From positions 342,264 to 406,263 of the forward strand of contig CBDFLD010000016.1 in NCBI GenBank assembly GCA_965249005.1: DNA of 64,000 nt, written 5' to 3'. The notes under the pieces were generated by a model. That model made no database searches. It saw only the letters and a program-made list of their open reading frames with translations, and was not told the DNA's origin. Below are positions 17,100 to 33,958 of the stretch, in pieces. This stretch comes from Acidobacteriota bacterium. Its GTDB lineage: Bacteria; Acidobacteriota; UBA6911. The translations under genes were made by a program, and so were the position numbers. The first letter of the stretch is position 1, and every line of letters begins with the position of its first letter.

Positions 17100-17207
17100 C
17101 TTCCCTGAGGAGAATCAAGAAGCGAAGTCGGAGTAATGTCGCCGGGGCTGAATCCGACTACCAGACCCGGTAAAAAAGCAACAGCAGTCCTGCTTGACCG
17201 CGGAGCC

Positions 17208-18311
17208 CTATTGGGCCCCGATGATGAGTAAGCTTGTAAAGATCCCGGAGATACCGTTGAGCAGGTTCTTGCCGATTCTCTTGGTCGTCGACCCGGGAAC
17301 GATGATCACATCGTTTCGCGCCAGCTCGACGTCGTTGGCCTTTCCCTTCATCACGTCGTTCACGTTGACGGCAATCTGAGTGGCGGATGATCCGTCCGGT
17401 TCGCGACGCATGATGGTGGTTTTGTTGGCGGAGGCAGTGTCGAGCATTCCACCAGCTGTGGCCAAAGCCTTGGAAAGCGTGATCCGTTCGTTCCTCCGGA
17501 TTTGAAACGCTCCCGACTTCTGCACATCTCCCAGGACGTAGTAGTAATGTCCCTCACGCTCGGGGACGGTGATGACGTCCCTGGAGTATATCGGAATGTT
17601 CAATCGATGGTTCCCGACCACGAGCAGGTCCTCCAGATCGACCTCGATGGTTTCCGAGTACCCATTTGGTTCAGAAGAGACCGGGATTCCTGCAGCCTTG
17701 CCATCGTCCGGCTCATCTTCACCTGAAGGAACTCTGTGAATGTACACCCTGGAGTAATCTGCGTCCTTTTCCAGTCCCCCGGCTAGCGATATCGCATCCA
17801 CCAGACTCATTTGGCGTGTCAGCTGGTAAGTGCCGGGCCTCTGGACGGAACCCAGCACATTGAAGAACTGGCTCTTGTATTCCGTTACCTTCACCGTTAC
17901 CTGGGGATCATTCAGTATGGAAGCCTCGAGCAGTGTGGCGATCTTGACCTCCGCATCCCGTGCCGCCAGACCTAGCAGCTGCACTTCATCGATAAAAGGG
18001 AGCAAAATCCGGCCCTTTGAATCCAGCGACAGGCTTTTTTGATTCAGTTCTGGAATCCCGAACACACTCACTTCGACAACATCGCCCGGTCCCAGCAAGT
18101 AATCCTGGGAGTGGCGCGATAGCAAAGCCAGTCTCTTGTTGAGGGACTCGCTATCGGGTTCCGAGGTTGCGTTTACGGCCTGTTGGCTGAGAAGTTGCTC
18201 GATGGAAAGAGGCACATGCTTCCGAGCCGTTTCATCTTCTGACAGATTCTGTGCCTTTACACTGCATGGGATCAGAAACAAAGCAAACATCAGCACCAAT
18301 GAGTTTTTCAT
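17208..18311 (-). CDS. wza: Wza-like polysaccharide export outer-membrane protein (Poly_export plus SLBB domains)
   Basis: It has a signal peptide (MKNSLVLMFALFLIPCSVKA). The Poly_export motif is LGPGDVVEVSVFG, and there are two soluble ligand-binding beta-grasp (SLBB) repeats (YQLTRQMSLVDAISLAGGL... and FQIRRNERITLSKALATAGGM...). Confidence 0.85.
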   Translation of the reverse strand: MKNSLVLMFALFLIPCSVKAQNLSEDETARKHVPLSIEQLLSQQAVNATSEPDSESLNKRLALLSRHSQDYLLGPGDVVEVSVFGIPELNQKSLSLDSKGRILLPFIDEVQLLGLAARDAEVKIATLLEASILNDPQVTVKVTEYKSQFFNVLGSVQRPGTYQLTRQMSLVDAISLAGGLEKDADYSRVYIHRVPSGEDEPDDGKAAGIPVSSEPNGYSETIEVDLEDLLVVGNHRLNIPIYSRDVITVPEREGHYYYVLGDVQKSGAFQIRRNERITLSKALATAGGMLDTASANKTTIMRREPDGSSATQIAVNVNDVMKGKANDVELARNDVIIVPGSTTKRIGKNLLNGISGIFTSLLIIGAQ

Positions 18312-18344
18312 AATACCTTCCTCAAGACTTCTTTCCCTTCACCG

Positions 18345-20771
18345 TTACACGGCGTCCTGAGAATCATGTTGGCCATCCGGGCGCACACCATACCCATATC
18401 CGTAGCCATACTTTTTCCCGTAGCCGTAGTAGTAGTACTTCGAATAGTAGTAGTAATCCGCCGAGTGAACGTTGACGTCGTTCAGGAGTACGCCGATGAT
18501 GTGGGCATGGACATCCTGGAGGAGTCGCTTCGTTCGCTGCACGGCTTCCTTGGGAGTCTCCCCTCCCTTTACGACCAGGATGACACCGTCTGATTTCGTC
18601 GCCAAAATCCGGGCGTCCGTTACCGACAGAATCGGTGGGGAATCGATCACGATGTGGTCAAAATACTCTTCCAGCAACACGATCCCCTGCTCCATTCGAT
18701 GAGAGCCGGCCAGTTCGGCCGGGTTCGGAGGAATCCGGCCCGTAGTCACTGCAAAAAGGTTCGGGATATCTGTTTCCTGGATCAGGGAAGACAAGTCTGT
18801 ATTCCCAGAAAGATAACTGCTCATTCCGATGTTGTTTTCGAGGTTCAGGGCTCGATGCAAACGGGGGTTCCTCATGTCGAGGTCGAGAAGTATGACCTTG
18901 TCACCCGTCTGAGCCAGGGTGATCGCAATGTTGATCGCGGTGGTCGTCTTCCCTTCGCCCATTTGGCTAGAGGTTACGAGCAACGACTTGGGTGGTCGCC
19001 CCTTCCCGGAGGAAAGCAGTATTGAAGTCCTCAAGTTCCGATACGCTTCGGAAATCAACGACTTGGTGTCATTGTACGTGATGAGCTCGACCGAGGTCGG
19101 CCGACCCGGGACTTTCTCCTTGTTGTCTTCCGCGGCGTCGCCCTTCGTGCTGTCCGTCAGTAGTTTTTTCTGAGCAGGAGTCATGAAGGAGCTCAGGGCC
19201 GGAATCACCCCCAAAGAAGGTAACTTGATGTGACGGTCCACATCTTCCGGAGTCTTGACGCTACTATCCAAGTACTCGAGAAAGAAGGCTAGGGCCACGC
19301 CAATCAAGACACCAAAAACAAGCGCTATCATCAAATTGCGCGCCTTGTTCGGCTTGATCGCCCCACCCGGTGCTTCAGCCTCGTCCAATACGTGGATATT
19401 ATTCGATCTCAAACCGGCAGAAACGGTTGCCTCTTCTACCCGTTGGACCAAACCATCGTGTATCTCCTTGACAGTATCGGCTTCTCTCTTGAGTATCCCG
19501 TATTGGATGGAGCTCTGATTGATCTTGTTGGTCTCTGTTTTCTGCGCCTGCAAGGAGCGCTTCAGAAGCCCCTCCCGGTTGAGGGCAGTTCGATAAGCGG
19601 TCCCTATCTCCTGGATCGCCTTCTGTGACTCCTCCCTCAGTTGCTGCTCGGCCTCGGCGAGCTGAGACGCGACCTTCGCCAATTCCGGATAGTTGCCCTT
19701 GAAGACTGCCGACAACCGAGCTTTCTCCTGTCTGAGATCTTGCACCTTCAGCTCGGCGTTTCTCATTTCTCCGGTGCGCAGAACATCAGGGAATTGCTCG
19801 GGCGTGGAGTCCTTTACAATCTGCCAGATCGATTCTCTTTGAATTCGATCAGACTGTGCTGCGGTCAACGCGGCGTTCAAGTCTGAAAGCTTCTGCTGGC
19901 TGACGTTCTCTTCACCGCCGATATTGTAGATGTCATTTTCCTTACTGAATCGCAGCAGTTCTTGCTCCGCTTCCTCGACTTTGCTCCGCAACGTTTCAAT
20001 CTGGTCTTGGAGGAAGTCCTTGCTTTGGTTCGTGGACTCCAACTTGGTTTCGAAGTTCATCTCAATGTACTCGCCCGCCAAGGTATTCACTACCTCGGCG
20101 CCAAGTTGTGGGTCGTGATGCTCGAAACTGAGGTCGACGAGTCGGGTGTTCTTGACCGGGGCCACCGTTAGGTTGGCGACGAGGTATCCGGCCAAGCGAG
20201 AGTATTTCGAGGCATCCCGATCATCGCCCCGTTCCCCCCCGTCTTCCTGCAATTCGCCCAGCAAAGGAACCTGAGCCCCCATGCCGCGCACCCAGCTCAA
20301 CACTCTACTCGTTACGGTCGGATCCTCCGTCAACAAGAAGCGAGGGTCTTCCTCCAGGTTCATGGCAACGATAACCCTATCTGCGAGAGTCTGCGACTCG
20401 AGGATCTTGAATTGAGTCTGCAAGTACTCTTGGCTCTTGGCATAGACGGAGTATGGGTCGTAGGTATTCTGAAAAGGCAGGACATTCGATTGCTCGGCGT
20501 CTATTTGCAACCTCAGGGTCGCCTGGTAGATGGGAGTGGCTTTCCACGACGAGATGACCGACAAGCACGTCGCGGTGAAAACGATGGCCAACACAGTCCA
20601 ACGACGCTTCAAAAGCACACGCCAGTAATCGAGGATATGGATCCGATCGTCCTCTTCCTGTTCGATTTGTTCGTAAAGGTTCGGAGCGTGAGACTGGTAC
20701 TGGACCTCAGGAAGCTGCGATAGCTCGCTTGACCGGACTAGCTTGTTCGGCTCAATGTTGTTCTTGTCCAT
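18345..20771 (-). CDS. wzc: Wzc-like polysaccharide co-polymerase tyrosine autokinase (PCP-2a)
   Basis: 808 aa. It has an N-terminal transmembrane helix, a periplasmic coiled-coil domain and a second transmembrane helix. The Walker A motif is GEGKTTTAINIAITLA, and the C-terminal tyrosine cluster is ADYYYYSKYYYYGYGKKYGYGYGYG. Confidence 0.9.
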   Translation of the reverse strand: MDKNNIEPNKLVRSSELSQLPEVQYQSHAPNLYEQIEQEEDDRIHILDYWRVLLKRRWTVLAIVFTATCLSVISSWKATPIYQATLRLQIDAEQSNVLPFQNTYDPYSVYAKSQEYLQTQFKILESQTLADRVIVAMNLEEDPRFLLTEDPTVTSRVLSWVRGMGAQVPLLGELQEDGGERGDDRDASKYSRLAGYLVANLTVAPVKNTRLVDLSFEHHDPQLGAEVVNTLAGEYIEMNFETKLESTNQSKDFLQDQIETLRSKVEEAEQELLRFSKENDIYNIGGEENVSQQKLSDLNAALTAAQSDRIQRESIWQIVKDSTPEQFPDVLRTGEMRNAELKVQDLRQEKARLSAVFKGNYPELAKVASQLAEAEQQLREESQKAIQEIGTAYRTALNREGLLKRSLQAQKTETNKINQSSIQYGILKREADTVKEIHDGLVQRVEEATVSAGLRSNNIHVLDEAEAPGGAIKPNKARNLMIALVFGVLIGVALAFFLEYLDSSVKTPEDVDRHIKLPSLGVIPALSSFMTPAQKKLLTDSTKGDAAEDNKEKVPGRPTSVELITYNDTKSLISEAYRNLRTSILLSSGKGRPPKSLLVTSSQMGEGKTTTAINIAITLAQTGDKVILLDLDMRNPRLHRALNLENNIGMSSYLSGNTDLSSLIQETDIPNLFAVTTGRIPPNPAELAGSHRMEQGIVLLEEYFDHIVIDSPPILSVTDARILATKSDGVILVVKGGETPKEAVQRTKRLLQDVHAHIIGVLLNDVNVHSADYYYYSKYYYYGYGKKYGYGYGYGVRPDGQHDSQDAV

Positions 20772-21139: not shown

Positions 21140-21735
21140 AGTGAATTACCCTCGCCTGAAGGCGAGGGCTTCGGTCGTCGGCTGAAGCCGACTAAAGGCC
21201 TCGCCTCATAGAATGGCCTATTCCGTTATCTTAAAGTCCCGGTCCTCCTGGGGCTCGACACCTTGTTGCTCAATGTACTGCTTGATCACTTCGTCCGTCA
21301 CATTTCCTGTCGTACACACAAAGTACCCTCGTGCCCACAGGTGCCGGCCCCAGAACTCCCTTTGCACCGACCTATATTCCCTCATTAGATGGTGACTGCT
21401 CTTCCCCTTCACGGCCTGCATGATTCGGCTCGGCGACACCTGCGGCGGCATGCTCAACATCAAGTGCACATGATCTGGACTCACATTCCCTTTCACAATC
21501 ACCACATCCTCAGATGCACAGATCTCTCGGATCAGCTCTCTTGTCCTTCTGGCTATGTCCCCCTTCAGGACCGGCTTGCGGTACTTCGTGATAAACACAA
21601 AGTGATATTGCAGCTCATAGACTGTGTGCGATCCTTTCCGGTATCTCGGCATGCATCATTGTACCGCAAGCCTCCTAAAGGCTTCGCCTGAAGGCGAGGG
21701 ATTTCACCCATCCCCGAGTGGGACATTAAAAATAT
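21140..21735 (-). mobile_element. IS200/IS605-family insertion sequence, tnpA only, with subterminal hairpins
   Basis: The tnpA ORF is flanked by perfect hairpins: ccctcgcc-tgaa-ggcgaggg (21148-21167) and gtcggc-tgaa-gccgac (21176-21191) on one side, and tcgcc-tgaa-ggcga (21684-21697) on the other. A near-identical direct motif ctaaaggcYtcgcct sits at both ends (21191-21205 and 21675-21689). Confidence 0.75.
21218..21652 (-). CDS. tnpA: IS200/IS605-family Y1 (HUH) transposase TnpA
   Basis: 144 aa. The sequence MPRYRKGSHTVYELQYHFVFITKYRKPVL...SPDHVHLMLSMPP carries the HuH motif (HVHLM) and the catalytic Y near the C-terminus (YIEQQ). Confidence 0.9.
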   Translation of the reverse strand: MPRYRKGSHTVYELQYHFVFITKYRKPVLKGDIARRTRELIREICASEDVVIVKGNVSPDHVHLMLSMPPQVSPSRIMQAVKGKSSHHLMREYRSVQREFWGRHLWARGYFVCTTGNVTDEVIKQYIEQQGVEPQEDRDFKITE

Positions 21736-21845: not shown

Positions 21846-22718
21846 ATGCGATTATTCACTGCCGTTACATTCATTCTTCTAAACTTGGCCCCGTCTACCG
21901 GCAAGGTGGTTCTGAAGACCGGTATCGAAGGTGTCCGTTTCTCTCTCGACGGGACTTTCGTATCGACGACCGATGCCGAGGGCAAACTCGTGATGGAGGG
22001 TTTTCCGTCTGGCAGATTCAACTACGCGCTCGAGAAGTCCGGCTTTCGGCCAATTCAGGGGACCTTCGATGTTTCGGTCGACCAAGCAAGCATCATTGAA
22101 GTAAAGATGGTGGCACGGGTCTCGGCACCAAGCGAGAGCAAAGAGAAACCGCGACCGACACCGCGGGCATCTTTGACTTCCCCCAAGGCACACTCCGATC
22201 CCCACCAGACGGCAGACGGCTCGTCTTTGCGACCGGTTCCGGATAACACAAATCTTGCAAATCTTGCAAATCTTGCGGATGTTGGGGATGTCGCGGAAGC
22301 GGTGCATCCCATTGAGGCGCGTCCCTCTTCGGGGGCTCCCAACGTCATCGAACCTACGGAGCAACCTTCCAGCGTGGCCGGGATCTTGCTAGGGCTCCTG
22401 GGGGTGCTCTCACTTGCTGCATTCTTGATTTGGACGCAACGGCAAAAGGCGTCTCATTCTGGTCAGAGAATCGAGCGACTTGCGGCCGCGGTAGATCCGC
22501 TCTCGATTTGTCCGGAGCCGTCGACGGAAGACAAACTCGTTCCGGTCAAAGAAAGACCGGAATTCATTGATCAGATCCGCCGCCGTGAAGAACTCATCAA
22601 GGCCGGATTCGTCGGCGATCAGACCAAGAGCTTTGATCGCGACGAGGCGGCCGAGAGAGAGAAAGAAATCGTGATTGTGCTGCCGAAGGAAGCCTATAGA
22701 TACGAAGAAGAGCTTTAG
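21846..22718 (+). CDS. hypothetical single-pass membrane protein with an N-terminal PEGA-like beta-sandwich domain
   Basis: It has a signal/anchor (MRLFTAVTFILLNLAPSTG). GIEGVRFSLDGTFVSTTDAEGKLVMEGFPSGRFNYALEKSGF fits a PEGA domain. A Pro/Ser-rich linker follows, then a transmembrane helix (VAGILLGLLGVLSLAAFLIW) and a charged cytoplasmic tail. It contains a 9-bp x3 repeat. Confidence 0.45.
   Translation: MRLFTAVTFILLNLAPSTGKVVLKTGIEGVRFSLDGTFVSTTDAEGKLVMEGFPSGRFNYALEKSGFRPIQGTFDVSVDQASIIEVKMVARVSAPSESKEKPRPTPRASLTSPKAHSDPHQTADGSSLRPVPDNTNLANLANLADVGDVAEAVHPIEARPSSGAPNVIEPTEQPSSVAGILLGLLGVLSLAAFLIWTQRQKASHSGQRIERLAAAVDPLSICPEPSTEDKLVPVKERPEFIDQIRRREELIKAGFVGDQTKSFDRDEAAEREKEIVIVLPKEAYRYEEEL
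22251..22277 (+). repeat. 9-bp tandem repeat x3 (aatcttgca) encoding NLANLANLA
   Basis: Direct reading gives aatcttgca aatcttgca aatcttgcg. Confidence 0.8.
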
Positions 22719-22890: not shown

Positions 22891-23430
22891 ATGTTCTCCG
22901 GAGATTGGCGCCCCGGCAGTTTTGCTAGAGTCCCCACCAATCTCGTGGATACAGAAGTCCTCATCCGGGGCATGGGACCTCCCAAAATGGACCCTCGAAT
23001 GGTAGACGGACTGCTTCGCTTCATAGAGCTGGAGAATCAGGACAAGAAACTCTTGTGCTGCTCGTATGCCATGGTCGCCGCGGTTCGCTTGGCGTTGTGG
23101 TTGCTACCGTTTCGCACGACCCGGGCACTTCTGGACCGCATCCCCCGAAAACGGGAAGACCGGGCAGTCGCGCCCGAAAGACTGAGCTGGGCTGTCCGGA
23201 CATCAAGCCGTCGAGTATTGGGGGCGTCTTGCCTGACCCAGGCTCTTGCACTTCTCGTACTTTTGTCGCGCCAAGGACAGGTAGCACAGCTACGCTTTGG
23301 CGTCTGCCAGGACAGGACTCAAGGTTTTCGGGCTCACGCTTGGCTGATACTCAAGGGGAAGATCTTGATCGGGGAGGAACTCCTGGATCAATACACACCC
23401 ATCCGCATGCTGGGGAGTGAAGTCCGATGA
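22891..23430 (+). CDS. lasso peptide biosynthesis B2 protein (transglutaminase-like Cys protease, leader peptidase)
   Basis: 179 aa. The Cys...His...Asp arrangement CCSYAMVAAVRLAL...GVCQDRTQGFRAHAWLILKGKIL matches the McjB C-terminal/Transglut_core3 consensus (C..SLAL...L...G....L.IGV......F.AHAWVE..G). Confidence 0.85.
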   Translation: MFSGDWRPGSFARVPTNLVDTEVLIRGMGPPKMDPRMVDGLLRFIELENQDKKLLCCSYAMVAAVRLALWLLPFRTTRALLDRIPRKREDRAVAPERLSWAVRTSSRRVLGASCLTQALALLVLLSRQGQVAQLRFGVCQDRTQGFRAHAWLILKGKILIGEELLDQYTPIRMLGSEVR

Positions 23431-25289
23431 GCGGGATCGCCGGTGTCTTGTCCATGGACGAACCGTCGGTCGACCCCGGCATCGTTGCGGTCATGCTGGA
23501 GAGACTCGCGCGCAGGGGGCCTGACGGCCAAGGGCTCTGGACACAAGGCTCACTGTCGCTCGGGCACCGCATGCTAAAGGTAACTCCGGAATCGATGAAC
23601 GAGCATCTTCCATTGGTCAAAGACGAGATCGTTCTTACCTGCGACGCACGAATCGACAACCGCATCGAGTTGATCCGCGGGCTAAGGCTCCGCTCGGCGC
23701 CTGCCGACAGCGAGCTGATTCTGAGAGCCTATCAGGAGTGGGGAGTTCGTTGCCCAGAGAAGCTCCGGGGAGACTTTGCGTTTGCACTCTGGGACATAAA
23801 GAAGAGATGTTTCTTCGCCGCGCGAGATCGGATTGGGATAAAGCCCCTGTACTACGTATTGAATTCGAAGACCTTCGGCGTGGCCTCCGAAATATCCCCT
23901 TTGTTCGAAATCCCGAACGTTGCAAAAAGGCCCGACGTGGATTCTCTGAACGAATTCCTGGACCTCACGGTTGTGCCGGCGGACCGGACGCTCTATGACG
24001 GATTACGCCGGCTTCCGCCCGGACATACTCTGGTCCTGCAAGGCGGTCGAATGAGGCTGGATCGCTACTGGGCGCCAAATCCTCAGCTGGAGATGCGCCA
24101 GCCCAGCCTGTCGCAACATGCGGAGGAGTTTCGCGATCTCTTCTCAGAGGCAGTTGCGGCACAGATGCGAACATCGTCTGGGGTGGGGTGTCTGCTGAGC
24201 GGAGGTCTCGATTCATCCTCTGTTCTTTGCGTGGCAGCGGATGCGGCACCGGCTTCCGAGGCGCCGGCCGCATTCTCGATGATCTTCGATTCACTCGGCT
24301 GCGACGAGCGGGAGTTCATCCAAGAGGTGACGCGAAAGACCGACGTTCCGAGCTATGCGGCCGCCGTGGACGGGGCCGAGTCGTCGACGCTGCTCCAGAA
24401 ATACTCCTCGATGTGTCCGGACTGGCCTGTTCGCGGATTCTGCCCTACCGCTATCTGGCCGTTGATGGAACTTGCGCGCAAGGGTGGAACACGCGTCATG
24501 CTCACGGGACACGGCGGGGATCATGTCGCGGAAGGCAACCTGTCATCCCTGACGGATCTCATGAGGACAGGTCACGTGTCGGAGCTCTTGAGACAATTGC
24601 AGCCCTTTCGCTACGCACCCTCAGTGTGGATGGAATTCGTCATCAAACCGCTTCTGCCAAGGAGCTTCAAGAACCTGGCTCGGTGGCTGCTTCGCGCCGA
24701 AACAACCACCCTGCGCCAAAGCACCCTGCGTGAAAGCACCCTGCGCCAAAGCACCCTGCGCCAAAGCACCCTGCGCAAAAGATCGAATAGAGCGTTAGAG
24801 GGAGAGCGATCCGATCCATGGACACGGAACGGGAGCCACTTTGCGCACCAAGAGGCCCTGGCCCTGTTGTCGCCGAGTACGAGCCTGTGGCTCGATGGTT
24901 ATTGGGATGTTCTGGGCAGCCTATTTGGGATGGAGTTCCGGCACCCCTTTTTCGACTCTCGACTCATCGAGTACCTCCTGACGATTCCTCCGCAAGAGAA
25001 ACTCTGGGGAGGACAGACCAAGGTCCTCTTGCGAGAAGGAATGGATGGAATTCTCCCCGAACAAGTGCGTAACCGAACCGGAAAAGCGGAATTTTCACCT
25101 CTCGTAGAACACCAGCTCAAGCGCCTACCGTCACCTGCCATACGATCTCTTCGCCTGGCGCAGGACGGCTTTGTCAACCGAGAAAGACTTGCAACACTCA
25201 ACGGCGGATCGAAGCCTGGCCAGAGCAACAGCATCTCGCTATGGCCGGTTCTGTGTTTGGACGCCTGGTATGAAGCCAACTTCAATTGA
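23427..25289 (+). CDS. lasso peptide cyclase C (asparagine synthetase B homolog, macrolactam synthetase)
   Basis: 620 aa. It has an AsnB-like N-terminal domain but starts MSGIAG, with Ser where the glutaminase nucleophile Cys2 would be. The PP-loop is LLSGGLDSSSV. Its ATGA start overlaps the B2 stop. It contains the coding repeat (STLRQ)x5. Confidence 0.85.
   Translation: MSGIAGVLSMDEPSVDPGIVAVMLERLARRGPDGQGLWTQGSLSLGHRMLKVTPESMNEHLPLVKDEIVLTCDARIDNRIELIRGLRLRSAPADSELILRAYQEWGVRCPEKLRGDFAFALWDIKKRCFFAARDRIGIKPLYYVLNSKTFGVASEISPLFEIPNVAKRPDVDSLNEFLDLTVVPADRTLYDGLRRLPPGHTLVLQGGRMRLDRYWAPNPQLEMRQPSLSQHAEEFRDLFSEAVAAQMRTSSGVGCLLSGGLDSSSVLCVAADAAPASEAPAAFSMIFDSLGCDEREFIQEVTRKTDVPSYAAAVDGAESSTLLQKYSSMCPDWPVRGFCPTAIWPLMELARKGGTRVMLTGHGGDHVAEGNLSSLTDLMRTGHVSELLRQLQPFRYAPSVWMEFVIKPLLPRSFKNLARWLLRAETTTLRQSTLRESTLRQSTLRQSTLRKRSNRALEGERSDPWTRNGSHFAHQEALALLSPSTSLWLDGYWDVLGSLFGMEFRHPFFDSRLIEYLLTIPPQEKLWGGQTKVLLREGMDGILPEQVRNRTGKAEFSPLVEHQLKRLPSPAIRSLRLAQDGFVNRERLATLNGGSKPGQSNSISLWPVLCLDAWYEANFN
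24707..24781 (+). repeat. 15-bp tandem repeat x5 (caccctgcgccaaag) inside the cyclase gene, encoding TLRQSTLRESTLRQSTLRQSTLRK
   Basis: There are five consecutive 15-mers with 0-2 mismatches each. The repeat is in frame. Confidence 0.85.
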
Positions 25290-25308
25290 AACAAGGAGCG
25301 AATCACCC

Positions 25309-25488
25309 ATGGAAAAGCAAAACCCTAAGGATATTACGGTAGAGGAACAAGAAAAGACCAGTCCGTCTCAGCAGAAGGAATACACGACTCCACAGCTGAC
25401 AGAATACGGAAAAGTCGCCCAGGTCACCGGTGGACGTCCGGGCACGACGCGTGACTTCGGCGGGACTTCTCCAGCCTTCCCCGGATAG
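25309..25488 (+). CDS. lasso peptide precursor (A): a 41-aa leader plus the 18-aa core GRPGTTRDFGGTSPAFPG
   Basis: 59 aa: MEKQNPKDITVEEQEKTSPSQQKEYTTPQLTEYGKVAQVTG|GRPGTTRDFGGTSPAFPG. The RBS aaggag lies 10 nt upstream. The leader matches the YxxPxLx3Gx5TxG consensus exactly (Y25, P28, L30, G34, T40 at position -2). The core begins with Gly1 and has Asp8 as the ring acceptor, followed by bulky Phe9 and Phe16 as candidate plug residues. Confidence 0.85.
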   Translation: MEKQNPKDITVEEQEKTSPSQQKEYTTPQLTEYGKVAQVTGGRPGTTRDFGGTSPAFPG

Positions 25489-25507
25489 CGCCGGAGTTTG
25501 CCGACAC

Positions 25508-26410
25508 GTGATCGCAAAGCTAATCCGGAAAAAACGCCAGGCGTACTGGGCCTCGCTTGAGAGTGATCTGCCCCTAGGAACCCTTCCCGTTGGAGCCTCT
25601 GATCTGAGCACAACGGTCCGGATCCGAAGAACGGAGCACTCCAGACCGGCCCAAGGCACATTGGACCGCATGGAATGCTTCGTACAAGGGAGGCACCTCC
25701 TCGCCACGGGAAAGAGCGATCGCTGTCTCACAATCGATGGCGTCGGAGAGTTCTTTCTCGGCCAGGGTATGCAAGAGATCCAGTACCGTCACTTCCCGGG
25801 CGGCACCTCCAAGTTGATCGGCTACTGGCTTCTCCACTCCGTTCTACCCTTCCACCTTTTCTCCCAACGTAGTTTGGAGTTTCTTCATGCCAGCGCGGTT
25901 GCGATCGGAAGATTGTCGGCGGCATTCTTGGCGCCCTCTCATGGTGGGAAGTCCACACTTGCGGAGTACTTCGTGCGGAGGGGCCACCCACTAATCACTG
26001 ATGACAAGCTGGGAATACTGCAGTCCAACGGACAGTACCTGGCTGTGCCGGGAGTTCCCTTTCTTCGTCCCTATCGGAGATCCGAGGACCTGGGGTATCG
26101 CATCGAGAACTTTGCACGGGAGCCTCTTCCGCTTGGAACCTTGTACGTACTCCAAGCCAAGGATCCCGAAGCTCCGATCAAGATCAGGGAACATTCCCCT
26201 GCCGAGGCATCATGGGCCTTGACACAAAACTGGGAGTTTCGAATCGCGTCTAGAATCAAGGAGCGTTTCGAATACTTCGCCGACCTGGTGGCATGCACAA
26301 GGGTATGCAGCATCGAAATCCCGCGAGACCCAGCCCGGTTGCCCCAAGTCTACACCGCCGTTTGCCAAGACCTGGACGGATTGAAACAGCCTTCTGCTCA
26401 AGCCATCTGA
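25508..26410 (+). CDS. HPr kinase/phosphorylase C-terminal-domain homolog (lasso-peptide Ser/Thr kinase, PadeK-like)
   Basis: HASAVAIGRLSAAFLAPSHGGKSTLAEYFVRRGHPLITDDKLGIL matches the HprK P-loop block (H.gv.v.G.gvLI.G.SG.GKSetAleLv.RGHrLvaDD). A GTG start at 25508 follows a GGAG; the alternative ATG start is at 25670. Confidence 0.75.
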   Translation: MIAKLIRKKRQAYWASLESDLPLGTLPVGASDLSTTVRIRRTEHSRPAQGTLDRMECFVQGRHLLATGKSDRCLTIDGVGEFFLGQGMQEIQYRHFPGGTSKLIGYWLLHSVLPFHLFSQRSLEFLHASAVAIGRLSAAFLAPSHGGKSTLAEYFVRRGHPLITDDKLGILQSNGQYLAVPGVPFLRPYRRSEDLGYRIENFAREPLPLGTLYVLQAKDPEAPIKIREHSPAEASWALTQNWEFRIASRIKERFEYFADLVACTRVCSIEIPRDPARLPQVYTAVCQDLDGLKQPSAQAI

Positions 26411-26465: not shown

Positions 26466-26765
26466 ATGTCACCGAATCTCGAATCCAGAGTTGAAATCGC
26501 ACCGGAGATTGTCTACCAAAAAGTCGGCGAGGAAACCGTATTCCTGAACCTTCACACCGGCTTCTACTACGGTCTCGACTCAGTAGGAAGTCGCTTCTGG
26601 GAATTGCTGTCGGATCAGAGGGCTCCGATGCTGAGCGAGGTTCTCGAGGCAATCACCCGAGAATATGATGCTCCCACCGACAGGATCCAGATGGACATTC
26701 TGGAACTGGTGGAAAACCTTCATGCCAAAGGGCTGGTCACGCTGCCGACAGAGGCCGACTCGTAA
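26466..26765 (+). CDS. lasso peptide biosynthesis B1 protein (PqqD-family RRE, leader-binding)
   Basis: 99 aa. EIVYQKVGEETVFLNLHTGFYYGLDSVGSRFWELLSDQ...EVLEAITREYDAPTDRIQMDILELVENLHAKGLV is a canonical PqqD fold signature. The RBS is aggag. Confidence 0.85.
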   Translation: MSPNLESRVEIAPEIVYQKVGEETVFLNLHTGFYYGLDSVGSRFWELLSDQRAPMLSEVLEAITREYDAPTDRIQMDILELVENLHAKGLVTLPTEADS

Positions 26766-26769
26766 ACAA

Positions 26770-27456
26770 ATGAATATTCTCAATCGCGAAACGGTCCTGA
26801 AGCGCTGCTCAGAGCTGCGTATCCGCCTCGATCCAGGCAACCGCCTTCAAATATCGAACGACCGTCATCGGATCGAATGTCGGGGACAGGGACTTTCGAT
26901 CCTCGAGGTCTTCGCTCACCCGACGAGCGTCGGCGAGGCGATCCAGAAGCTGGGCACGAACCTCCCGGGTAGCCAGGCATTCGTAGACCTTGTCAACATG
27001 ATCATGGAGCTCCACCAGGCCGGAATCCTGGAATCGATCGATGGACGAACTTCGCCCCCGGATCCCGAGCCCGCCGGATTTGGCGCACCGCAGATCCACG
27101 TCCAGATGCTCAACGACCGGGAGCGAACTGCCAAGTACATCCAAGCCATCCGCGAGGTTGTCCGAGAAGGCGATGTCGTGGTCGAGATCGGCACCGGCAC
27201 GGGAGTGCTATCGGTGGCAGCAGCCCAAGCGGGCGCACGGCATGTCTATACAATTGAGGAAACCGGGATCGCAGATGGTGCGGAAGCCGTATTTGCGGCA
27301 AACAATCTGCAGAATCAGATTACGCTGGTACGCGGAAGATCCACCCAGGTACAGATACCCGAACGAGCGGATGTCCTGGTCAGTGAGGTAATCGGAAACG
27401 AGCCTCTGGCTGAAAAGGTCGTCCAGTATACACTGGATGCGCGCACTAGGCCTTAG
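26770..27456 (+). pseudogene. 5' part of an RRE-like/PRMT-like (protein arginine methyltransferase fold) methyltransferase gene, interrupted by an IS1380-like insertion
   Basis: The ATG lies 5 nt after the B1 stop. The N-terminal ~90 aa are PqqD/RRE-like (LRIRLDPGNRLQISNDRHRIECRGQGLSILEVFAHPTSVGEAIQKL). Motif I is VVVEIGTGTGVLSVAAAQAGARHVYTIEE, and the double-E loop is VLVSEVIGNEP. The ORF ends ...DARTRP* exactly where the IS begins. Confidence 0.7.
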
Positions 27457-29302
27457 TCCAGCGTGATTTTTTGCATGAGGAGGAAGAAAAGCCCTGGAAC
27501 GTGCGCCGTTACGGGATAAAATGCGTTTGATATATTTACAAGACATCCCGAAAGGAGCACATTCCAGGTGAATAAAAGAAACCACAGAATCCTCCTCCGA
27601 GACAAGCAAAATCTTACACGCCGGTTGGAAAGAAATCAGTTTGAGGACCGGTCCGATCCTATGTTCAAGGACTCCAACACCTACTACGAGATCGCCGAGA
27701 GAACGCGCGCCATCGGATCTGGTGGTATCGGAGCCATTCACAAGCTCGTGTGTAAGCTTGGATTGGACAAAGATATCAACAGAAACATCGTTTTGCTCAA
27801 GTACCACTTTCCTTACTGGGAATCCGATCATGTACTGAACATCGCATACAACGTCTTGTCGGGTGGAACCTGTCTCGAAGATATCGAGCGGTTGCGCCAG
27901 GATGAGACCTACATGAACGGACTGGGAGCCGAGAGGATTCCGGATCCCACGACGGCTGGAGATTTCCTCCGTCGTTTCGATGAGGATTGGATCTTCGGAC
28001 TTCAGGAAACCATCAATGAAACCCGAACCAAGGTGTGGAAGTTGCAGGATGCTTCCTTCCGGAAGGAGGCCATCATCGACGTGGACGGGACCGTCGCCGG
28101 AACCTTGGGGGAATGCAAGGAAGGAATGGACATTGCCTACAACGGGATCTGGGGTTACGCACCGTTGATCGTGACCTTGGCCAATACGAATGAGGTCCTC
28201 TATCTGATGAATCGGCCGGGCAACCGTCCCTCTTCCGACGGAGCGGCCGAGTGGATGGACCGGGCAATCGATCTGGTGTCGTCGGTGTTTACGAAGGTCT
28301 GGCTTCGGGGCGACACGGATTTCTCGCTGACGAGAAACTTCGATCGCTGGGACGAGCGGGTTGGTTTTGTCTTTGGTTATGACGCCAAGCCGAACCTGGT
28401 CGGGATGGCCGATGCCCTGCCGGAGAGACAATGGAAACCGCTCGAGCGGCCTCCTCGTTATGAGGTCAAGAGCGAAGAACGGCGCCGTCCGGAAAACGTC
28501 AAAGAACAAGTAATCAAGGAGAGAGAATTCAAGAACATCCGCCTGCAGAGCGAGCAGGTCGCCGAGTTTGACTATCGTCCCGGACACTGTAAGAAAACCT
28601 ATCGCATGGTTGTGGTTCGGAAGAACCTCACGATCGAAAAGGGGGAGCACCGGCTGTTTGATGAGGTCCGGTACTTCTTCTACATCACCAACGATCGGGA
28701 GATGACGATGGGAGAAGTGGTCCTTTTTGCCAACGATCGCTGCAACCAGGAAAACGTCATCGGTCAGCTCAAGAGTGGAGTGAACGCCTTGAGGATGCCT
28801 TCGGACAGTCTGGTATCGAACTGGGCCTACATGGTCATCGCATCGCTGGCGTGGAATCTGAAGGCCTGGTATGGCCTGGTGACGCAGGCGCCGACAGTAC
28901 GTCGTGATATCTTGAGGATGGAGTTCAAACGCTTCCTGGTGAACTTTGTGCAAATACCCTGTCAGATTGTAAGAACCGGTCGTCGCCTCGTTTACAGGAT
29001 ATTGGCCTATAGCAAGCATCTCGAAACCTTTTTGGCGACGTTCGACTATATCAGGCAACTCAGGTTTACTTGAAGGCGCCTCGCCGGCGGGTGAGCCCGT
29101 ACCCCCGGCGGAGCAAGAGTGGCGGGCGAAAGGAAGGGCATAACAGAGACAAACAAGATCAAGTGATCCAGACAACCAATGGAAGGTTTGTCTCTTGTGT
29201 TTCTCTTTGCTTTCCCTGTTACGCACAAGGAGCTGAAATCCACGAGATATTCGGAAAAGGCAAACGATTTTCCGAGCGAGCTCATACCTCGCTTATTTTG
29301 GG
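27451..29302 (+). mobile_element. IS1380-like (IS4-superfamily DDE) insertion sequence, about 1.85 kb, inserted into the methyltransferase gene
   Basis: It is flanked by the 6-bp direct repeat ACTAGG (27445-27450 and 29303-29308). Deleting 27451-29308 joins the two methyltransferase fragments in frame. The imperfect terminal inverted repeats start CC (ccttagtccagcg / RC cccaaaataagcg). It contains a single 501-aa transposase ORF. Confidence 0.7.
27568..29073 (+). CDS. IS1380-family DDE transposase (full length)
   Basis: 501 aa. The blocks are DVDGTVAGTLGECKEGMDIAYNGIWGYAPLIV (D...E..YNG.....PL) and the C-terminal NDRCNQENVIGQLKSGVNALRMPSDSLVSNWAYMVIASLAWNL, as in IS1380-type transposases. 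Confidence 0.8.
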   Translation: MNKRNHRILLRDKQNLTRRLERNQFEDRSDPMFKDSNTYYEIAERTRAIGSGGIGAIHKLVCKLGLDKDINRNIVLLKYHFPYWESDHVLNIAYNVLSGGTCLEDIERLRQDETYMNGLGAERIPDPTTAGDFLRRFDEDWIFGLQETINETRTKVWKLQDASFRKEAIIDVDGTVAGTLGECKEGMDIAYNGIWGYAPLIVTLANTNEVLYLMNRPGNRPSSDGAAEWMDRAIDLVSSVFTKVWLRGDTDFSLTRNFDRWDERVGFVFGYDAKPNLVGMADALPERQWKPLERPPRYEVKSEERRRPENVKEQVIKEREFKNIRLQSEQVAEFDYRPGHCKKTYRMVVVRKNLTIEKGEHRLFDEVRYFFYITNDREMTMGEVVLFANDRCNQENVIGQLKSGVNALRMPSDSLVSNWAYMVIASLAWNLKAWYGLVTQAPTVRRDILRMEFKRFLVNFVQIPCQIVRTGRRLVYRILAYSKHLETFLATFDYIRQLRFT

Positions 29303-29836
29303 ACTAGGTTCCTCAGAGACAATGCAAGGTTTGTGCCCAATCGGCTGGACGTTTATGGTTTGCCCGTCGTCGTGACCGAGGAGCAGCTGGCGAGGCACCT
29401 GTTCACGGAGACAACAGCAAAGCAGTGGCAGGATTGGTACGGAATAAGATTCCAGCCACTCACAGAACTCTCCCGAAATTCGCCTCATCCATGTTTCATT
29501 CGGCCACGGGACGCACGCCGATGGCAGAGCCTGAGTGCGCCAATCTTGTTGTCGAGCTATGACCTGGCGGAGACAGCGACTCCAGTCGTCCAGAACTCCG
29601 CCGGCAGCGTTGCCACCGCGCAGGGAGAGTGCAACGGATTGCTCGTGTTCTTCGAAGTACAGCTCGGACCTACAACCCGTCTCTCGACTCACCCGGAACA
29701 CGCCGGGGAAGCCAGTTCGTGGTATTCGCCCCTCTGGACTTTACCCGAGCCCATCTCACTTCACAGAGGAGATCGATTCGAAGTCCTCTACAAACATGAC
29801 GGCGACATGGGCCGTGTATGGGTTCGACGTTCCTAG
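29303..29836 (+). pseudogene. 3' part of the interrupted PRMT-like methyltransferase (C-terminal beta-barrel with THW-like loop)
   Basis: Read in frame from the right-hand ACTAGG: TRFLRDNARFVPNRLDVYGLPVV...SWYSPLWTLPEPISLHRGDRFEV. This parallels PRMT ...[21 protein letters not shown]...[22 protein letters not shown]. Confidence 0.7.
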
Positions 29837-29856: not shown

Positions 29857-31059
29857 GTGAGAAACGCGATCTTGCAACCTGAACAAGACGTCCTGCTCTG
29901 CTGCGCACGCAGTGCGCTCGATACGGGGAGCCGATTACGGCTCGCGAGTCTGCTCCGAAATGTAGTGGATTGGGATTATCTATTTCGCACCTCGCAGCGT
30001 CACGGTCTACTTCTATTGCTCCACAAGCATTTGATCGCCTGCGGAAGCACTGCGATTCCACCATCAGTCCTGCAGCGGATCAAAGACCACTTCCACCGAA
30101 ATGCGGCGCGCAACCTTCACATGACAGCCGAGCTATGTCGCGTCTTGGACTACCTGGAAGGCCACGGCGTCAGTGCCCTTCCATGGAAGGGTCCGGCACT
30201 GTCCGCATCCCTGTACGAAGACCTGACCGCACGGCAATATGACGACCTGGACGTACTGATTCGGGTCGAGGAGGTACCACGCGCTTTGCAACTGCTCCAA
30301 CGAATCGGATATCAGCCCCAATTCAGCCTCGGCGGCGCAGAAGAAGAAGCCTATCTCAGATCCAAATGCGAGTACGCGCTGGTGGAGCCACAAAAAGCCG
30401 TGGTTCTGGAAATACACTGGAGGATCGTTCCCAGGTACTTTTCCATCGATCTGGACATCGCTCCCCTCTGGGAACGGACGGACGCAATCACCCTGGGGAA
30501 CTCCAGAGTCCAGACACTCAAGAATGAAGATCTGATGATTCTTCTTGCAATTCACGGCGCATCGCACCTCTGGGATCGAGTTGGCTGGATCTGCGATCTC
30601 TCCGAGCTCCTTGCCCCGGCACACTCGTTGGACTGGGACTGGATTCTAAGGGAAACGAAGCGTCTCGGCTGCCGGCGGATCTTGATGTTGGGACTGAATC
30701 TGGCCAGTCAACTGCTAGGACAACAAATTCCGGACCAAATCGAAGGACATGTTCAGGAGCGATCGGCGACCCGGCTTGCCGAGACCGCCCGGCGTCGTCT
30801 TTTTCGAGACCACTGGGAGCAGCCCGGAATCGTCGAAGTCAACTATTTCCTGGTTCGGTCTCGCGAGCGATGGATGGATCGGGTCTTGTTCTGTATCCGC
30901 CTTGCGACGACAACCTCACCCGAAGACTGGGCCTTCTTGCGGCTCCCGAGGCTCTTGTTCCCCCTCTATGTTTTCGTTCGCCCCTTTCGATTGTGCATCA
31001 AATACTTTTCTTCCTACTGGCGGCAATCCGGATGGGGAACGGACGGTTCGAATGCGTGA
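29857..31059 (+). CDS. NTP_transf_5-type nucleotidyltransferase, an accessory enzyme associated with the lasso cluster
   Basis: 400 aa. VLLCCARSALDTGSRLRLASLLRNVVDWDYLFRTSQRHGLLLLLHKHL...LPWKGPALSASLYEDLTARQYDDLDVLI matches the 'uncharacterised nucleotidyltransferase' family that recurs in lasso BGCs. The stop overlaps the ABC exporter start. Confidence 0.7.
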   Translation: MRNAILQPEQDVLLCCARSALDTGSRLRLASLLRNVVDWDYLFRTSQRHGLLLLLHKHLIACGSTAIPPSVLQRIKDHFHRNAARNLHMTAELCRVLDYLEGHGVSALPWKGPALSASLYEDLTARQYDDLDVLIRVEEVPRALQLLQRIGYQPQFSLGGAEEEAYLRSKCEYALVEPQKAVVLEIHWRIVPRYFSIDLDIAPLWERTDAITLGNSRVQTLKNEDLMILLAIHGASHLWDRVGWICDLSELLAPAHSLDWDWILRETKRLGCRRILMLGLNLASQLLGQQIPDQIEGHVQERSATRLAETARRRLFRDHWEQPGIVEVNYFLVRSRERWMDRVLFCIRLATTTSPEDWAFLRLPRLLFPLYVFVRPFRLCIKYFSSYWRQSGWGTDGSNA

Positions 31060-33013
31060 TCCTCTCTTCGAGAAATATCTTACAGCAGTCGTCGAGATCC
31101 TATCATGGAAGGTGGTGCTCGCCGTCGTATTGATGGGCCTCGTGAGTCTGAGCGAAGGTATAGGCCTCATGCTGCTGATTCCCTTACTGCAGCAGACCGG
31201 ACTCGACGTCTACCAGGGATCCCTGGGGACGGTTGCGCGTTTCTTATCGAGGGCTTTCGAATTCGTGCATCTCGAAGCTCGCTTGCCAACCGTGCTGGGC
31301 TTCTACTTGACGGTCGCGGTCTTGATCGGCTGTCTATCTCGATGGGAATCCATACTCAAGTTTCAACTGGTTTACCGTTTTGTCTCTGCCTTGCGCCTCC
31401 GCCTCTATGACGCCGTTGGCCGAACCAGCTGGGAGTTCTTTGCGCGATTGCGGTCGTCCTCCATCGCGCACGTACTGACCACCGAAGTGGAACGAGTCGG
31501 AGCCGCCACTTTTCATTTGATGCAACTCGTCTCGCTGGCAGCCATTTCCCTGACGTACATCGGTTTTGCCTTTGCGCTATCCTGGGGCATGACCGCAGTG
31601 GTTTTTGTTGCCGGGATTCTCCTGCTATTGGCCCAGAGACGACAGCTTGTCGTCGCACGAGCCGCCGGCAGGGACACGTCCGAGGAAACCAGGGGGCTTT
31701 TCGCCGCGATTTCGGAGCATTTGAGCGGCATGAAGACCGCGAGGTGTCATGGTCTTGATCTCCAGCTGGCTGAGTCCTTTTCAGCGCAGACCTCGAAGGT
31801 GAAGGTAGCATCCCTCCGTTCGGTCTTCAATCAAGCAGATACCAAGTTCCGGTTGGATCTTGGACACACCTTGATTCTGGGTGCAATCCTTTACGCCTCC
31901 ATCGAACTGGTCCAAATTGCAGCCGCGGAAGTCCTTCTGCTGCTATACCTTTACGCACGCCTTATGCCCAGACTGTCCGGAGTTCTTCAAAGCTACCAAG
32001 GCTTTATGAATCTGTTGCCAGCATACGCCGCCGTTTCAGAGCTGGAGGAAGAATGTGTCGCAGCCCCCGTGGTTCGAACGAGTCACGCCCAAGATATCGA
32101 GCTCAGAGAGGGAATTCACTTAAAGGGAGTATCGTTCCAGCATGATCGCCCCGTGCTCGAAGATCTGACCCTGTCCGTCGAGGCAGGCCGAGTGACTGCC
32201 ATCGTGGGACCCTCGGGAGCGGGTAAGAGTACCATTGCCGAGCTCGTAATCGGATTGATCCAACCGCATCGCGGTTCCGTATGGGTCGACAATACCCCTC
32301 TTGCCCCCGAACACTTGTCGAGTTGGCGAAGGCAGATCGGCTATGTTTCCCAGGACGGCTTCCTGTTTCACGATACCGTCCGCGCAAACCTGCTGTGGGC
32401 CAATCCACAGGCTACAGCCGAACAAATCAAGCGTGCGCTGTGCATGGCCTCGGCAGGATTCGTGGAACGACTACCGGAGCGGTTGGACACCATCGTCGGC
32501 GACCGCGGAATCCTACTCTCTGCCGGGGAAAAACAGCGCCTCGCGATAGCGCGTGCCTTGATCCGTGAGCCCTCACTCCTGATCTTGGACGAGGCAACCA
32601 GCCAGCTGGACTCCGAAAACGAAGAGAACGTCCTGAACGCCATGGACCAGCTCCGAGGTTACACAACGATATTGACCATCGGACACCGTCCCAGCACAGT
32701 GCACAGAGCCGACACGATCCATATCCTGGATGCCGGCACCATCATAGAGTCCGGCCCATGGAATGAGCTGACAAAACGGGTTGGTGGCCGCTTCCCGATC
32801 CTCTCCTTGGCCCACGGAGTGGAGGCGGATCTAGACGGCCAAGCGCCACCCGCGCGCAGCGCTTCGGAGATCGAAGGCCACGGTTCAGGACACGGGCCGC
32901 TGACCGGCACTTCCGTTTCGCGACGCCTCGACCCAGTCGCGAATTCCAATGAGGGCCACCGGGATAACGACGGGAAAGGCCAGAAACAGGGTTCGGCCGG
33001 GATTGCCCCATAG
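31052..33013 (+). CDS. ABC exporter (fused TMD-NBD, McjD-like lasso peptide export/immunity protein D)
   Basis: It has six transmembrane helices. Walker A is GPSGAGKST, the signature motif is LSAGEKQRLAIARAL, Walker B is LLILDEAT and the H-loop is TIGHR. The last ~60 aa (a Gly/His-rich tail) may be read-through, because a convergent membrane-protein gene overlaps it. Confidence 0.8.
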   Translation: MRDPLFEKYLTAVVEILSWKVVLAVVLMGLVSLSEGIGLMLLIPLLQQTGLDVYQGSLGTVARFLSRAFEFVHLEARLPTVLGFYLTVAVLIGCLSRWESILKFQLVYRFVSALRLRLYDAVGRTSWEFFARLRSSSIAHVLTTEVERVGAATFHLMQLVSLAAISLTYIGFAFALSWGMTAVVFVAGILLLLAQRRQLVVARAAGRDTSEETRGLFAAISEHLSGMKTARCHGLDLQLAESFSAQTSKVKVASLRSVFNQADTKFRLDLGHTLILGAILYASIELVQIAAAEVLLLLYLYARLMPRLSGVLQSYQGFMNLLPAYAAVSELEEECVAAPVVRTSHAQDIELREGIHLKGVSFQHDRPVLEDLTLSVEAGRVTAIVGPSGAGKSTIAELVIGLIQPHRGSVWVDNTPLAPEHLSSWRRQIGYVSQDGFLFHDTVRANLLWANPQATAEQIKRALCMASAGFVERLPERLDTIVGDRGILLSAGEKQRLAIARALIREPSLLILDEATSQLDSENEENVLNAMDQLRGYTTILTIGHRPSTVHRADTIHILDAGTIIESGPWNELTKRVGGRFPILSLAHGVEADLDGQAPPARSASEIEGHGSGHGPLTGTSVSRRLDPVANSNEGHRDNDGKGQKQGSAGIAP

Positions 33014-33907
33014 GAAGATGACAGACAAGGCCAGAATCACGAGGAGCCAGAGCCAGTTCTTCAAGATCGTCGGCTTTTCGCTGAAAACGATGGCATACAG
33101 AGCAGGAAACCAGAAAAAACCAAATGAGGAGAACCAATCCAGAGCACCGTTGGGTGTCAACATCGATCGGATCTGAGAGAACGCCTGCCCTACCAACGAC
33201 AAATTGAAGAACGTGTCTTCCGAAAAGGGATCGATGACAAAACGGTAGAACAGATAGAGGATCGTTGCGGGAAGGAGCCACACCGAATAGAGCCATTTTC
33301 GCCGAAAGGAAAGCTCGGAGAGCCACAGCAGAGGCCAAAGGAACAGAGCCGTCTCCTTCATCACGAGTCCGACGGCAAAGCAGCCGACCAGGAGCCATGG
33401 GCGGTCCTTCAGGATAGCCAAGGCGCCGAGAAGCAAAAAAAGGAAAGCCGACGGATCCACCATGGGCGCACCCCCCTGCTGGAGTACGACACGACTCGTC
33501 AGGAATATGGTCACGCCGAGCAGAGAAAGCCAGGGAGCCTCAAAGAAGTGAGAAAGGTAGATAAAGAAAACGACGCCCGCCGACGTTAAAAATAATAGGT
33601 TGACGAGGGCAAAATGAATATGAGCACGAACAAACCGTGTGGGTTCTCGCCGCAGAAGACGCTCGATGGAGTCCGGCACCAGCTGAGCCAGCCAAATCGT
33701 GCCCATTCTATATCGTCTCTGGTTCTCAACAGACTCGCCGTAGTAAAGGCTCACATAATCCCTGGCGTCGGAAAGCCCCCCCAGGTTGTCGACGCTGAGG
33801 GTGTTTATGCTCACAAGGACGGTCGAAAGGCTGATATTGAAAGCGAAAACGGCGGCGACAGTGAGCAGGGTCCCTTTCGAGCTCAGCGATCTACGGGATA
33901 TCTTCAT
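32885..33907 (-). CDS. hypothetical polytopic integral membrane protein
   Basis: About 340 aa from MKISRRSLSS, with at least 8 hydrophobic helices and no recognisable catalytic motif. It is convergent with the ABC exporter. Confidence 0.4.
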   Translation of the reverse strand: MKISRRSLSSKGTLLTVAAVFAFNISLSTVLVSINTLSVDNLGGLSDARDYVSLYYGESVENQRRYRMGTIWLAQLVPDSIERLLRREPTRFVRAHIHFALVNLLFLTSAGVVFFIYLSHFFEAPWLSLLGVTIFLTSRVVLQQGGAPMVDPSAFLFLLLGALAILKDRPWLLVGCFAVGLVMKETALFLWPLLWLSELSFRRKWLYSVWLLPATILYLFYRFVIDPFSEDTFFNLSLVGQAFSQIRSMLTPNGALDWFSSFGFFWFPALYAIVFSEKPTILKNWLWLLVILALSVIFLWGNPGRTLFLAFPVVIPVALIGIRDWVEASRNGSAGQRPVS

Positions 33908-33958
33908 AGCGGCATCCTCGCGCTTGGAATGAGGATCGATCCGCAGGGATCGAAGCCA

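Follow-up and report, generated by a model that had tools for sequence, protein, structure and literature searches.

A predicted lasso peptide precursor gene in an acidobacterial cluster with a lasso-type kinase, a nucleotidyltransferase and an interrupted PRMT-like methyltransferase gene

The subject of this analysis is a short open reading frame (ORF), at 25309-25488(+), in a 64,000-nt stretch of DNA from an Acidobacteriota bacterium of the UBA6911 lineage (assembly GCA_965249005.1, contig CBDFLD010000016.1, positions 342,264 to 406,263 of the forward strand); we refer to this whole stretch as the window. The ORF sits within an operon of lasso peptide biosynthesis genes in the order B2-C-A-kinase-B1-methyltransferase-nucleotidyltransferase-ABC, all on the + strand, with overlapping start and stop codons at B2/C and at the nucleotidyltransferase/ABC junction, as is usual for operons (Table 1). 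It encodes the 59-aa peptide MEKQNPKDITVEEQEKTSPSQQKEYTTPQLTEYGKVAQVTGGRPGTTRDFGGTSPAFPG, ends in a TAG stop codon at 25486-25488, and starts 20 nt past the stop codon of the cyclase gene (25287-25289). Judged from its sequence and setting, the ORF is very probably the structural gene (A) of a predicted lasso peptide. An earlier note on this DNA had proposed a lasso precursor here, quoting a 59-aa peptide with a good ribosome-binding site; our translation is identical to the quoted peptide, a Shine-Dalgarno sequence precedes its ATG, and the interpretation is supported by the position of the gene, which lies in a complete lasso operon with the cyclase gene on one side and the genes for tailoring and for the chaperone on the other.

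The peptide divides into a leader, MEKQNPKDITVEEQEKTSPSQQKEYTTPQLTEYGKVAQVTG, and a core, GRPGTTRDFGGTSPAFPG. Read directly, the leader fits the pattern YxxPxLx3Gx5TxG exactly, with Thr at -2, as had been claimed for it. The strict form of this motif, Y..P.L...G.....T.[GASC], occurs once in the six frames of the window in a regular-expression scan, and its chance expectation in first-order Markov random sequence of the same composition is ~0.007 per window; with a relaxed leader pattern, no second credible precursor was found in the window. The core has Gly1 at a position that is Gly, Ala, Ser or Cys in lasso precursors, and Asp8 within positions 7-9, where Asp or Glu is expected. It also has two Arg residues (R2 and R7) and four hydroxyl residues (T5, T6, T12 and S13), in agreement with the earlier note, and ends in AFPG. 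The B2 protease, the B1 recognition element and a cyclase without a Cys nucleophile all adjoin the precursor on the same strand. The sequence-level hallmarks of a precursor of the split-B1/B2 type are all present, and that assignment is supported; the precursor is a previously undescribed but ordinary member of a well-known class. The predicted mature mass is 1758.844 Da (monoisotopic, for the lactam, minus H2O), rather than the ~1.7 kDa given previously. Phe9 and Phe16 had both been put forward as steric plugs; we infer that Phe16 is likely the sole plausible bulky plug, and we rejected Phe9 as unlikely, since it adjoins the ring directly after the ring-closing Asp.

The exact 59-aa peptide is already a called protein in the NCBI and ENA protein sets, and two metagenomic homologues, P0001 and P0003 (90-92% identical to the precursor), are called from the same start codon, so the expectation that standard gene callers would miss the gene was wrong. 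The core is identical at 18/18 positions in both homologues, and their substitutions all fall within leader residues 2-15, with the single exception of V39I. In an alignment of the window peptide and 12 precursors from related clusters, the leader motif had invariant Y, P and G and near-invariant L and Thr at -2; at equivalent places in related clusters of other phyla there are precursors that keep these invariant Y/P/G positions in their leaders. Three points weigh against the precursor assignment. First, the peptide reaches the NCBIfam lasso-leader model NF033521 at 19.2 bits with a cut-off of 19, a narrow pass by just 0.2 bit; the cyanobacterial lasso model NF033528 scores 23 bits, under its cut-off of 33. 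Second, the cyclase scores 452 bits on the lasso cyclase model NF033535, under the cut-off of 525. Third, the cyclases of the P0001 and P0003 relatives are 91% identical, so that the chance of an identical 18/18 core is ~0.18; because of this, core conservation in three close homologues is mildly informative and not significant by itself. Short ORFs are common, and two longer ORFs, a 105-aa frame with a TTG start (25171-25488) and an antisense frame of 142 aa (25303-25731), exist mechanically at the same place, so that the frame could be due to chance, or be part of one of these, and encode no peptide. We consider this very improbable indeed, given the rarity of the motif in random sequence, the hidden Markov model match and the conserved homologues with the same start. 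As candidates in their own right, the 105-aa ORF was rejected because it would overlap the 3' end of the cyclase gene by 119 nt, and the antisense ORF because it has no Pfam family match.

The junction between leader and core allows one further reading, in which cleavage falls one residue earlier, after Thr40, to give the core GGRPGTTRDFGGTSPAFPG with a 9-residue Gly1-Asp9 ring. The Gly-Gly junction makes both registers chemically possible, and related cores at loci L002, L018 and L031 have an acidic residue at position 9. Nonetheless, cleavage after Thr40 would place Thr at -1, whereas the Thr-at-minus-2 rule and the fixed motif spacing give cleavage after Gly41, both here and in the aligned relatives. 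We regard the earlier cleavage as improbable, and the Gly1-Asp8 ring is assumed below.

Table 1. Predicted features of the lasso peptide cluster in the window.
Feature	Coordinates	Strand	Evidence and remarks
B2 leader peptidase (transglutaminase-like cysteine protease)	22891-23430	+	PF13471 5.6e-21; NF033537 lasso_biosyn_B2 85 bits, cut-off 33; stop overlaps cyclase start
C, Asn-synthetase-like macrolactam cyclase, 620 aa	23427-25289	+	PF00733 (Asn_synthase) 2.4e-51
Shine-Dalgarno sequence AAGGAG	25293-25298	+	direct sequence reading; precursor ATG 10 nt further on
Leader peptide of precursor A, 41 aa	25309-25431	+	recognition motif YTTPQLTEYGKVAQVTG, Thr at -2
Core peptide GRPGTTRDFGGTSPAFPG and stop codon	25432-25488	+	predicted Gly1-Asp8 isopeptide ring, 10-residue loop/tail
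HPr-kinase-like tailoring kinase K	~25508-26410	+	GTG start inferred from conserved N-terminus
B1, PqqD-like RiPP recognition element (leader-binding chaperone)	26466-26765	+	PF05402 3.2e-15
Methyltransferase M, 5' part	26770-27450	+	N-terminal RRE domain, SAM-binding Rossmann domain, double-E loop
IS1380-family element, 1852 bp	27451-29302	+	transposase ORF 27568-29073; NF033539 297.5 bits, cut-off 180; PF13701
Methyltransferase M, 3' part, PRMT beta-barrel domain	29309-29836	+	PF17286, PF22528
NTP_transf_5 nucleotidyltransferase N, PsmN (pseudomycoidin) family	29857-31059	+	PF14907 7.8e-58
ATP-binding cassette (ABC) exporter, fused transmembrane and ATPase domains	31052-33013	+	PF00005, PF00664; start overlaps nucleotidyltransferase stop

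The biosynthetic genes around the precursor are those of a lasso cluster. The cyclase begins MSGIAG instead of the MCG of true glutamine-dependent AsnB, and its N-terminus thus lacks the Cys nucleophile of that enzyme. B1, a PqqD-like recognition element for peptides that are ribosomally synthesised and then modified post-translationally (RiPPs), also matches the lasso PqqD models of NCBIfam, at scores under their cut-offs. A scan of genome contigs with the cyclase found a single distant locus, in Omnitrophota, with 33% identity. The cyclase gene contains a 15-nt tandem repeat in five copies (24707-24781) that encodes STLRQ/STLRE; a 91%-identical cyclase relative (P0125) has two copies fewer, indicating a polymorphic copy number inside a region that codes for an enzyme. 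Promoter and terminator scans found sites no more numerous than in shuffled sequence, and Rfam and tRNA scans found nothing.

Downstream of the precursor lies a putative tailoring kinase. PF07475 matches it weakly, HprK structures match with an E-value of 0.007, and a profile match reaches 8e-120; there was no Pfam match to the kinase started at 25508, and no NCBIfam match to the longer frame from 25430. Residues H127, K148 (in GGKST) and D165-D166 are present among the invariant positions of our alignment (A3), and a His-Lys-Asp-Asp set has been described as catalytic in lasso kinases (PMC9266682). In its split B1/B2, cyclase, ABC exporter and HPr-kinase homologue with His-Lys-Asp-Asp, the cluster resembles those of paeninodin (Paenibacillus dendritiformis; PadeA/PadeK) and of ThcoK and SyanK (PMC8498205, PMC9266682), and the YxxPxL...T(-2) motif resembles the leader of paeninodin-type precursors. 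Pairing of the kinase with an NTP_transf_5-type nucleotidyltransferase recalls pseudomycoidin (Bacillus pseudomycoides), for which PsmK and PsmN together yield (poly)phospho-hexosyl lasso peptides (PMC9266682). The cluster differs from paeninodin-type operons in its gene order and in its additional methyltransferase gene; it differs from the pseudomycoidin cluster in the added methyltransferase and in not belonging to a Firmicute-type lineage.

The substrate sets it further apart from both. The paeninodin, ThcoK and SyanK kinases phosphorylate a C-terminal Ser that is extremely conserved in kinase-type precursors, and pseudomycoidin is modified on a phosphorylated C-terminal Ser, whereas the window core ends in Gly and so has no phospho-acceptor of the paeninodin/pseudomycoidin type. 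Because of this C-terminal Gly, the kinase cannot act like PadeK, ThcoK, SyanK or PsmK. Related cores tell the same story in part: a C-terminal Ser is found in two of the 12, and the others end in R, P, N, T, A, Y or G. Since the core lacks a C-terminal Ser, we hypothesise that an internal Thr or Ser (T5, T6, T12 or S13) would be the likeliest acceptor. In reviews to June 2026, the lasso phosphorylation described is on C-terminal Ser only (PMC8498205, PMC9266682, PMC13352647). On sequence grounds, the cluster is of the paeninodin/pseudomycoidin type, with a putative added methyltransferase and a non-canonical predicted kinase substrate.

The methyltransferase gene is another unusual part of the operon. 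It is split by an insertion sequence (IS) element of the IS1380 family; Pfam finds a PrmA/Rossmann match on ORF 26665-27456 and C-terminal domains of protein arginine methyltransferases (PRMTs) on ORF 29333-29836. Direct repeats of ACTAGG flank the element at 27445-27450 and 29303-29308, both of its ends start with CC and are otherwise poorly complementary, and no second copy exists within the window. When 27451-29308 is removed, the two halves join into one uninterrupted 402-aa ORF across the junction ARTRFLRDNARF, and this restored ORF shares 98% identity along its entire length with P0004, an intact protein of 418 aa encoded on the same 2.18 Mb metagenomic contig as precursor homologue P0003. 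The insertion looks recent and specific to this genome, because the intact relative is 98% identical, the element is single-copy in the window and the ORF can be restored.

Several lines of evidence point to a PRMT-type catalytic part. The sole sequence relatives in the Protein Data Bank (PDB) are PRMTs, led by PRMT7 (3.9e-23) and followed by PRMT6, CARM1 and PRMT1/2/3/8, with residues 118-401 covered. The S-adenosylmethionine (SAM) motif I, VVEIGTGTG (VxDxGxGxG), and a double-E motif, SEVIGNEPLAE (E-x8-E), are present; the latter aligns on the double-E loop of PRMT7, and across 21 homologues there is little or no variation in the SAM motif or at either glutamate. An AlphaFold (AF2) model has a predicted local distance difference test score (pLDDT) of 84.7, with a Rossmann domain and a C-terminal beta-barrel, and Foldseek matches it to PRMT6/3/1/7 with an E-value of 1e-23 and template-modelling (TM) scores of 0.7-0.8, normalised to the target; on PRMT6/3/1 it superposes over ~320 columns. 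The N-terminal domain consists of a beta-sheet followed by three helices and in structure comparison matches known RiPP recognition elements (RREs). Pfam gave no PF05402 match to this N-terminus, and hhalign with the B1 proteins of the clusters gave a weak match in the right register (E 0.0077, probability 5%). Because these two tests are weak, the RRE assignment is taken from the structure comparison. As modelled, the methyltransferase is an RRE-PRMT fusion, and we describe it as an uncharacterised, putative arginine-methyltransferase-like enzyme. Taken by itself, the RRE domain as a profile recovers 415 clusters at 50% identity, of which 230 have E <= 1e-10, and nearly all of the full-length proteins are ~400 aa long with the domain at the N-terminus.

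Cores adjoining related methyltransferases are rich in Gly, Thr and Ser, and 11/12 contain Arg, often in an RG or GR context and at no fixed position. Three observations count against arginine methylation of a lasso peptide by this family. At the place of the THW loop, homologues have xHW or xSW followed by SPVW, and the window protein has SSWYSPLW; conservation of this loop is not clear. Related cores do not share an Arg position, the L059 core has no Arg, and the Arg enrichment is weak. Members of the family also occur at L006/L007 and at many other loci without a cyclase or B2, from which it follows that the family is not lasso-specific. The target might be something other than arginine: Lys, the N-terminal amine, a carboxylate, or a phosphate or sugar from the kinase and nucleotidyltransferase. 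We think this unlikely, since in the PDB the catalytic part matches PRMTs only, by sequence as well as by fold, the two double-E glutamates, which bind guanidinium in PRMTs, vary little or not at all, and the window core contains no Lys. Given the conserved double-E loop, the guanidino group of Arg2 and/or Arg7 would be the most likely site of methylation. The suggestion in the earlier note that the Arg and hydroxyl residues could be tailoring targets fits the PRMT-like methyltransferase, HPr-kinase homologue and NTP_transf_5 neighbours; the IS element in the methyltransferase gene and the lack of the C-terminal Ser on which all characterised lasso kinases act are points beyond that note.

Homologues of the methyltransferase with 41-50% identity over the full length occur in lasso clusters that share the accessory genes seen here. 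The order is M-B1-B2-A-C-K-N at L002 and B1-B2-C-A-K-M-ABC-N at L005 (Kouleothrix), and the same gene set is found at L008, L012, L015, L018, L059 and L064. A cyclase or B2 gene was present at 14/86 methyltransferase loci and solely K, N or B1 at nine more, many of the contigs being too short. At L008 (2200-4721) and L013 (936-3238), a tandem pair of RRE-PRMT genes adjoins a lasso kinase or cyclase gene. The Methylomirabilota loci L006 (10001-21025) and L007 are of a polysaccharide type and combine RRE-PRMT, NTP_transf_5, PqqD and HprK/ScmC-like genes, with no cyclase or B2; a 70-aa ORF there (...AYAVPAVLTL...SSSRKGKRPKTANHGGKRRREDKRGKGRDD) has an Arg/Lys-rich tail. These two loci may represent a non-lasso RiPP-like system with the same tailoring set. 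The closest cyclases outside the lineage of the window cluster (42-43% identity) are those of the Methylococcus-type loci L088 (7556-15051, Methylococcus sp. ANG) and L090, which share with the window the order B2-C-A-K-x-B1-N(-ABC). In place of the methyltransferase, these loci have a radical-SAM/SPASM enzyme, and their core (GSLVLSVVTPLTATLADVAGG) is free of Arg; neither Asp nor Glu stands at its positions 7-9, an oddity in a lasso substrate.

Compared with known tailoring of lasso peptides, the predicted methyltransferase stands apart. Lasso methylations in the reviews cited above are just C-terminal O-methyl esters and PIMT-type Asp methylation (PMC8498205, PMC9266682, PMC13352647). Systems of both kinds, lassomycin/StspM for the C-terminal ester and lihuanodin/cellulonodin-2 for the Asp methylation that leads to aspartimide, share SAM-dependent tailoring with the window cluster, but their enzymes are O-methyltransferases of unrelated families, in contrast to the PRMT fold, double-E loop and own RRE of the window enzyme. 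The only known lasso tailoring of an arginine side chain is the conversion of Arg to citrulline in citrulassins by a peptidyl-arginine deiminase (PAD) (PMC8498205); this is deimination rather than methylation, and the PAD, whose gene is located outside the cluster, carries no RRE. Full-text searches of a limited literature, whose silence is not proof, gave no relevant match for PRMTs or arginine methylation in connection with lasso peptides or RiPPs.

Our favoured reading of the pathway begins with B1, which would bind the leader through the Y25-x-x-P28-x-L30 ... T40 motif. As the methyltransferase has its own RRE, it would act on the leader-bound linear precursor, binding the leader and methylating the peptide by analogy with other RRE-bearing enzymes. 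B2, going by what is known of lasso biosynthesis, would cleave after Gly41, and the cyclase would adenylate Asp8 and join it to the amine of Gly1, giving an 8-residue macrolactam threaded by a 10-residue C-terminal segment, with Phe16 as the likely plug. The kinase may phosphorylate an internal Thr or Ser, and the nucleotidyltransferase may extend that phosphate with a hexose or nucleotide, as PsmN does. The ABC transporter would export the product. Tentatively, and with somewhat less than even confidence, we propose that a widespread class of leader-guided, RRE-fused PRMT-type enzymes installs N-omega-methylarginine on a lasso peptide in intact clusters, with the kinase/NTP_transf_5 pair decorating internal Thr or Ser. 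Some RRE-PRMT loci are non-lasso and have short Arg-rich ORFs.

The genome studied here departs from such an intact cluster. Because the IS1380-family element splits the methyltransferase gene, any product made in this strain should be unmethylated; expression of the downstream nucleotidyltransferase and exporter genes may also be impaired, and the pathway may be partly dead, which counts against the favoured reading for this strain. A decaying cluster would yield no mature, fully tailored or exported product, the insertion abolishing methylation and polarity lowering expression of the nucleotidyltransferase and exporter. This is a possible but doubtful account, compatible with the favoured reading of the precursor and its pathway. 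The element lies inside the methyltransferase ORF, its ACTAGG repeat is still perfect, the halves join in frame with no other lesions, and two more transposase genes flank the cluster. By contrast, the other cluster ORFs are all intact and of full length, a repeat still perfect and halves still undamaged suggest that the insertion is recent and not part of a long decay, and the element lies downstream of the core genes B1, B2, C and A. The flanking transposases are of the IS200 type (Y1; 21218-21652(-), the exact protein being present on 10 contigs) and of the IS256/Mutator family (35890-37209(-)); with the IS1380-family element, three different IS families are found inside 16 kb.

Other genes near the cluster include exopolysaccharide export genes directly upstream, at 15624-20771(-), for a flippase-like protein, a Wza-like Poly_export/SLBB protein and a Wzc-like tyrosine kinase; polysaccharide genes also adjoin the RRE-PRMT loci L005 and L006/L007. 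Immediately upstream of B2, an ORF at 21846-22718(+) encodes 290 aa, hydrophobic at the N-terminus and again in an internal segment, and has no Pfam match. Just downstream of the ABC exporter gene, 33614-35782(+) encodes a protein of 722 aa whose C-terminal domain is of the FGE-sulfatase (formylglycine-generating-enzyme-like) kind.

Precursors of this class are found by the thousand in genome mining, and the points of note here are the RRE-PRMT family and the absent C-terminal Ser. The most interesting enzyme, the RRE-PRMT, is the one inactivated by an IS element in this genome. A core that lacks the C-terminal Ser implies that HPr-kinase homologues of lasso clusters may differ from the characterised kinases in their site specificity, or have a broader one. 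If the proposed activity of the methyltransferase is real, it would be the first known arginine N-methylation in a lasso peptide. As stable scaffolds, lasso peptides are of pharmaceutical interest, and the range of possible products grows with every new tailoring enzyme; if confirmed, a PRMT-type methyltransferase that depends on a leader would bring arginine methylation into the RiPP toolbox and provide an easily studied bacterial PRMT directed at a peptide.
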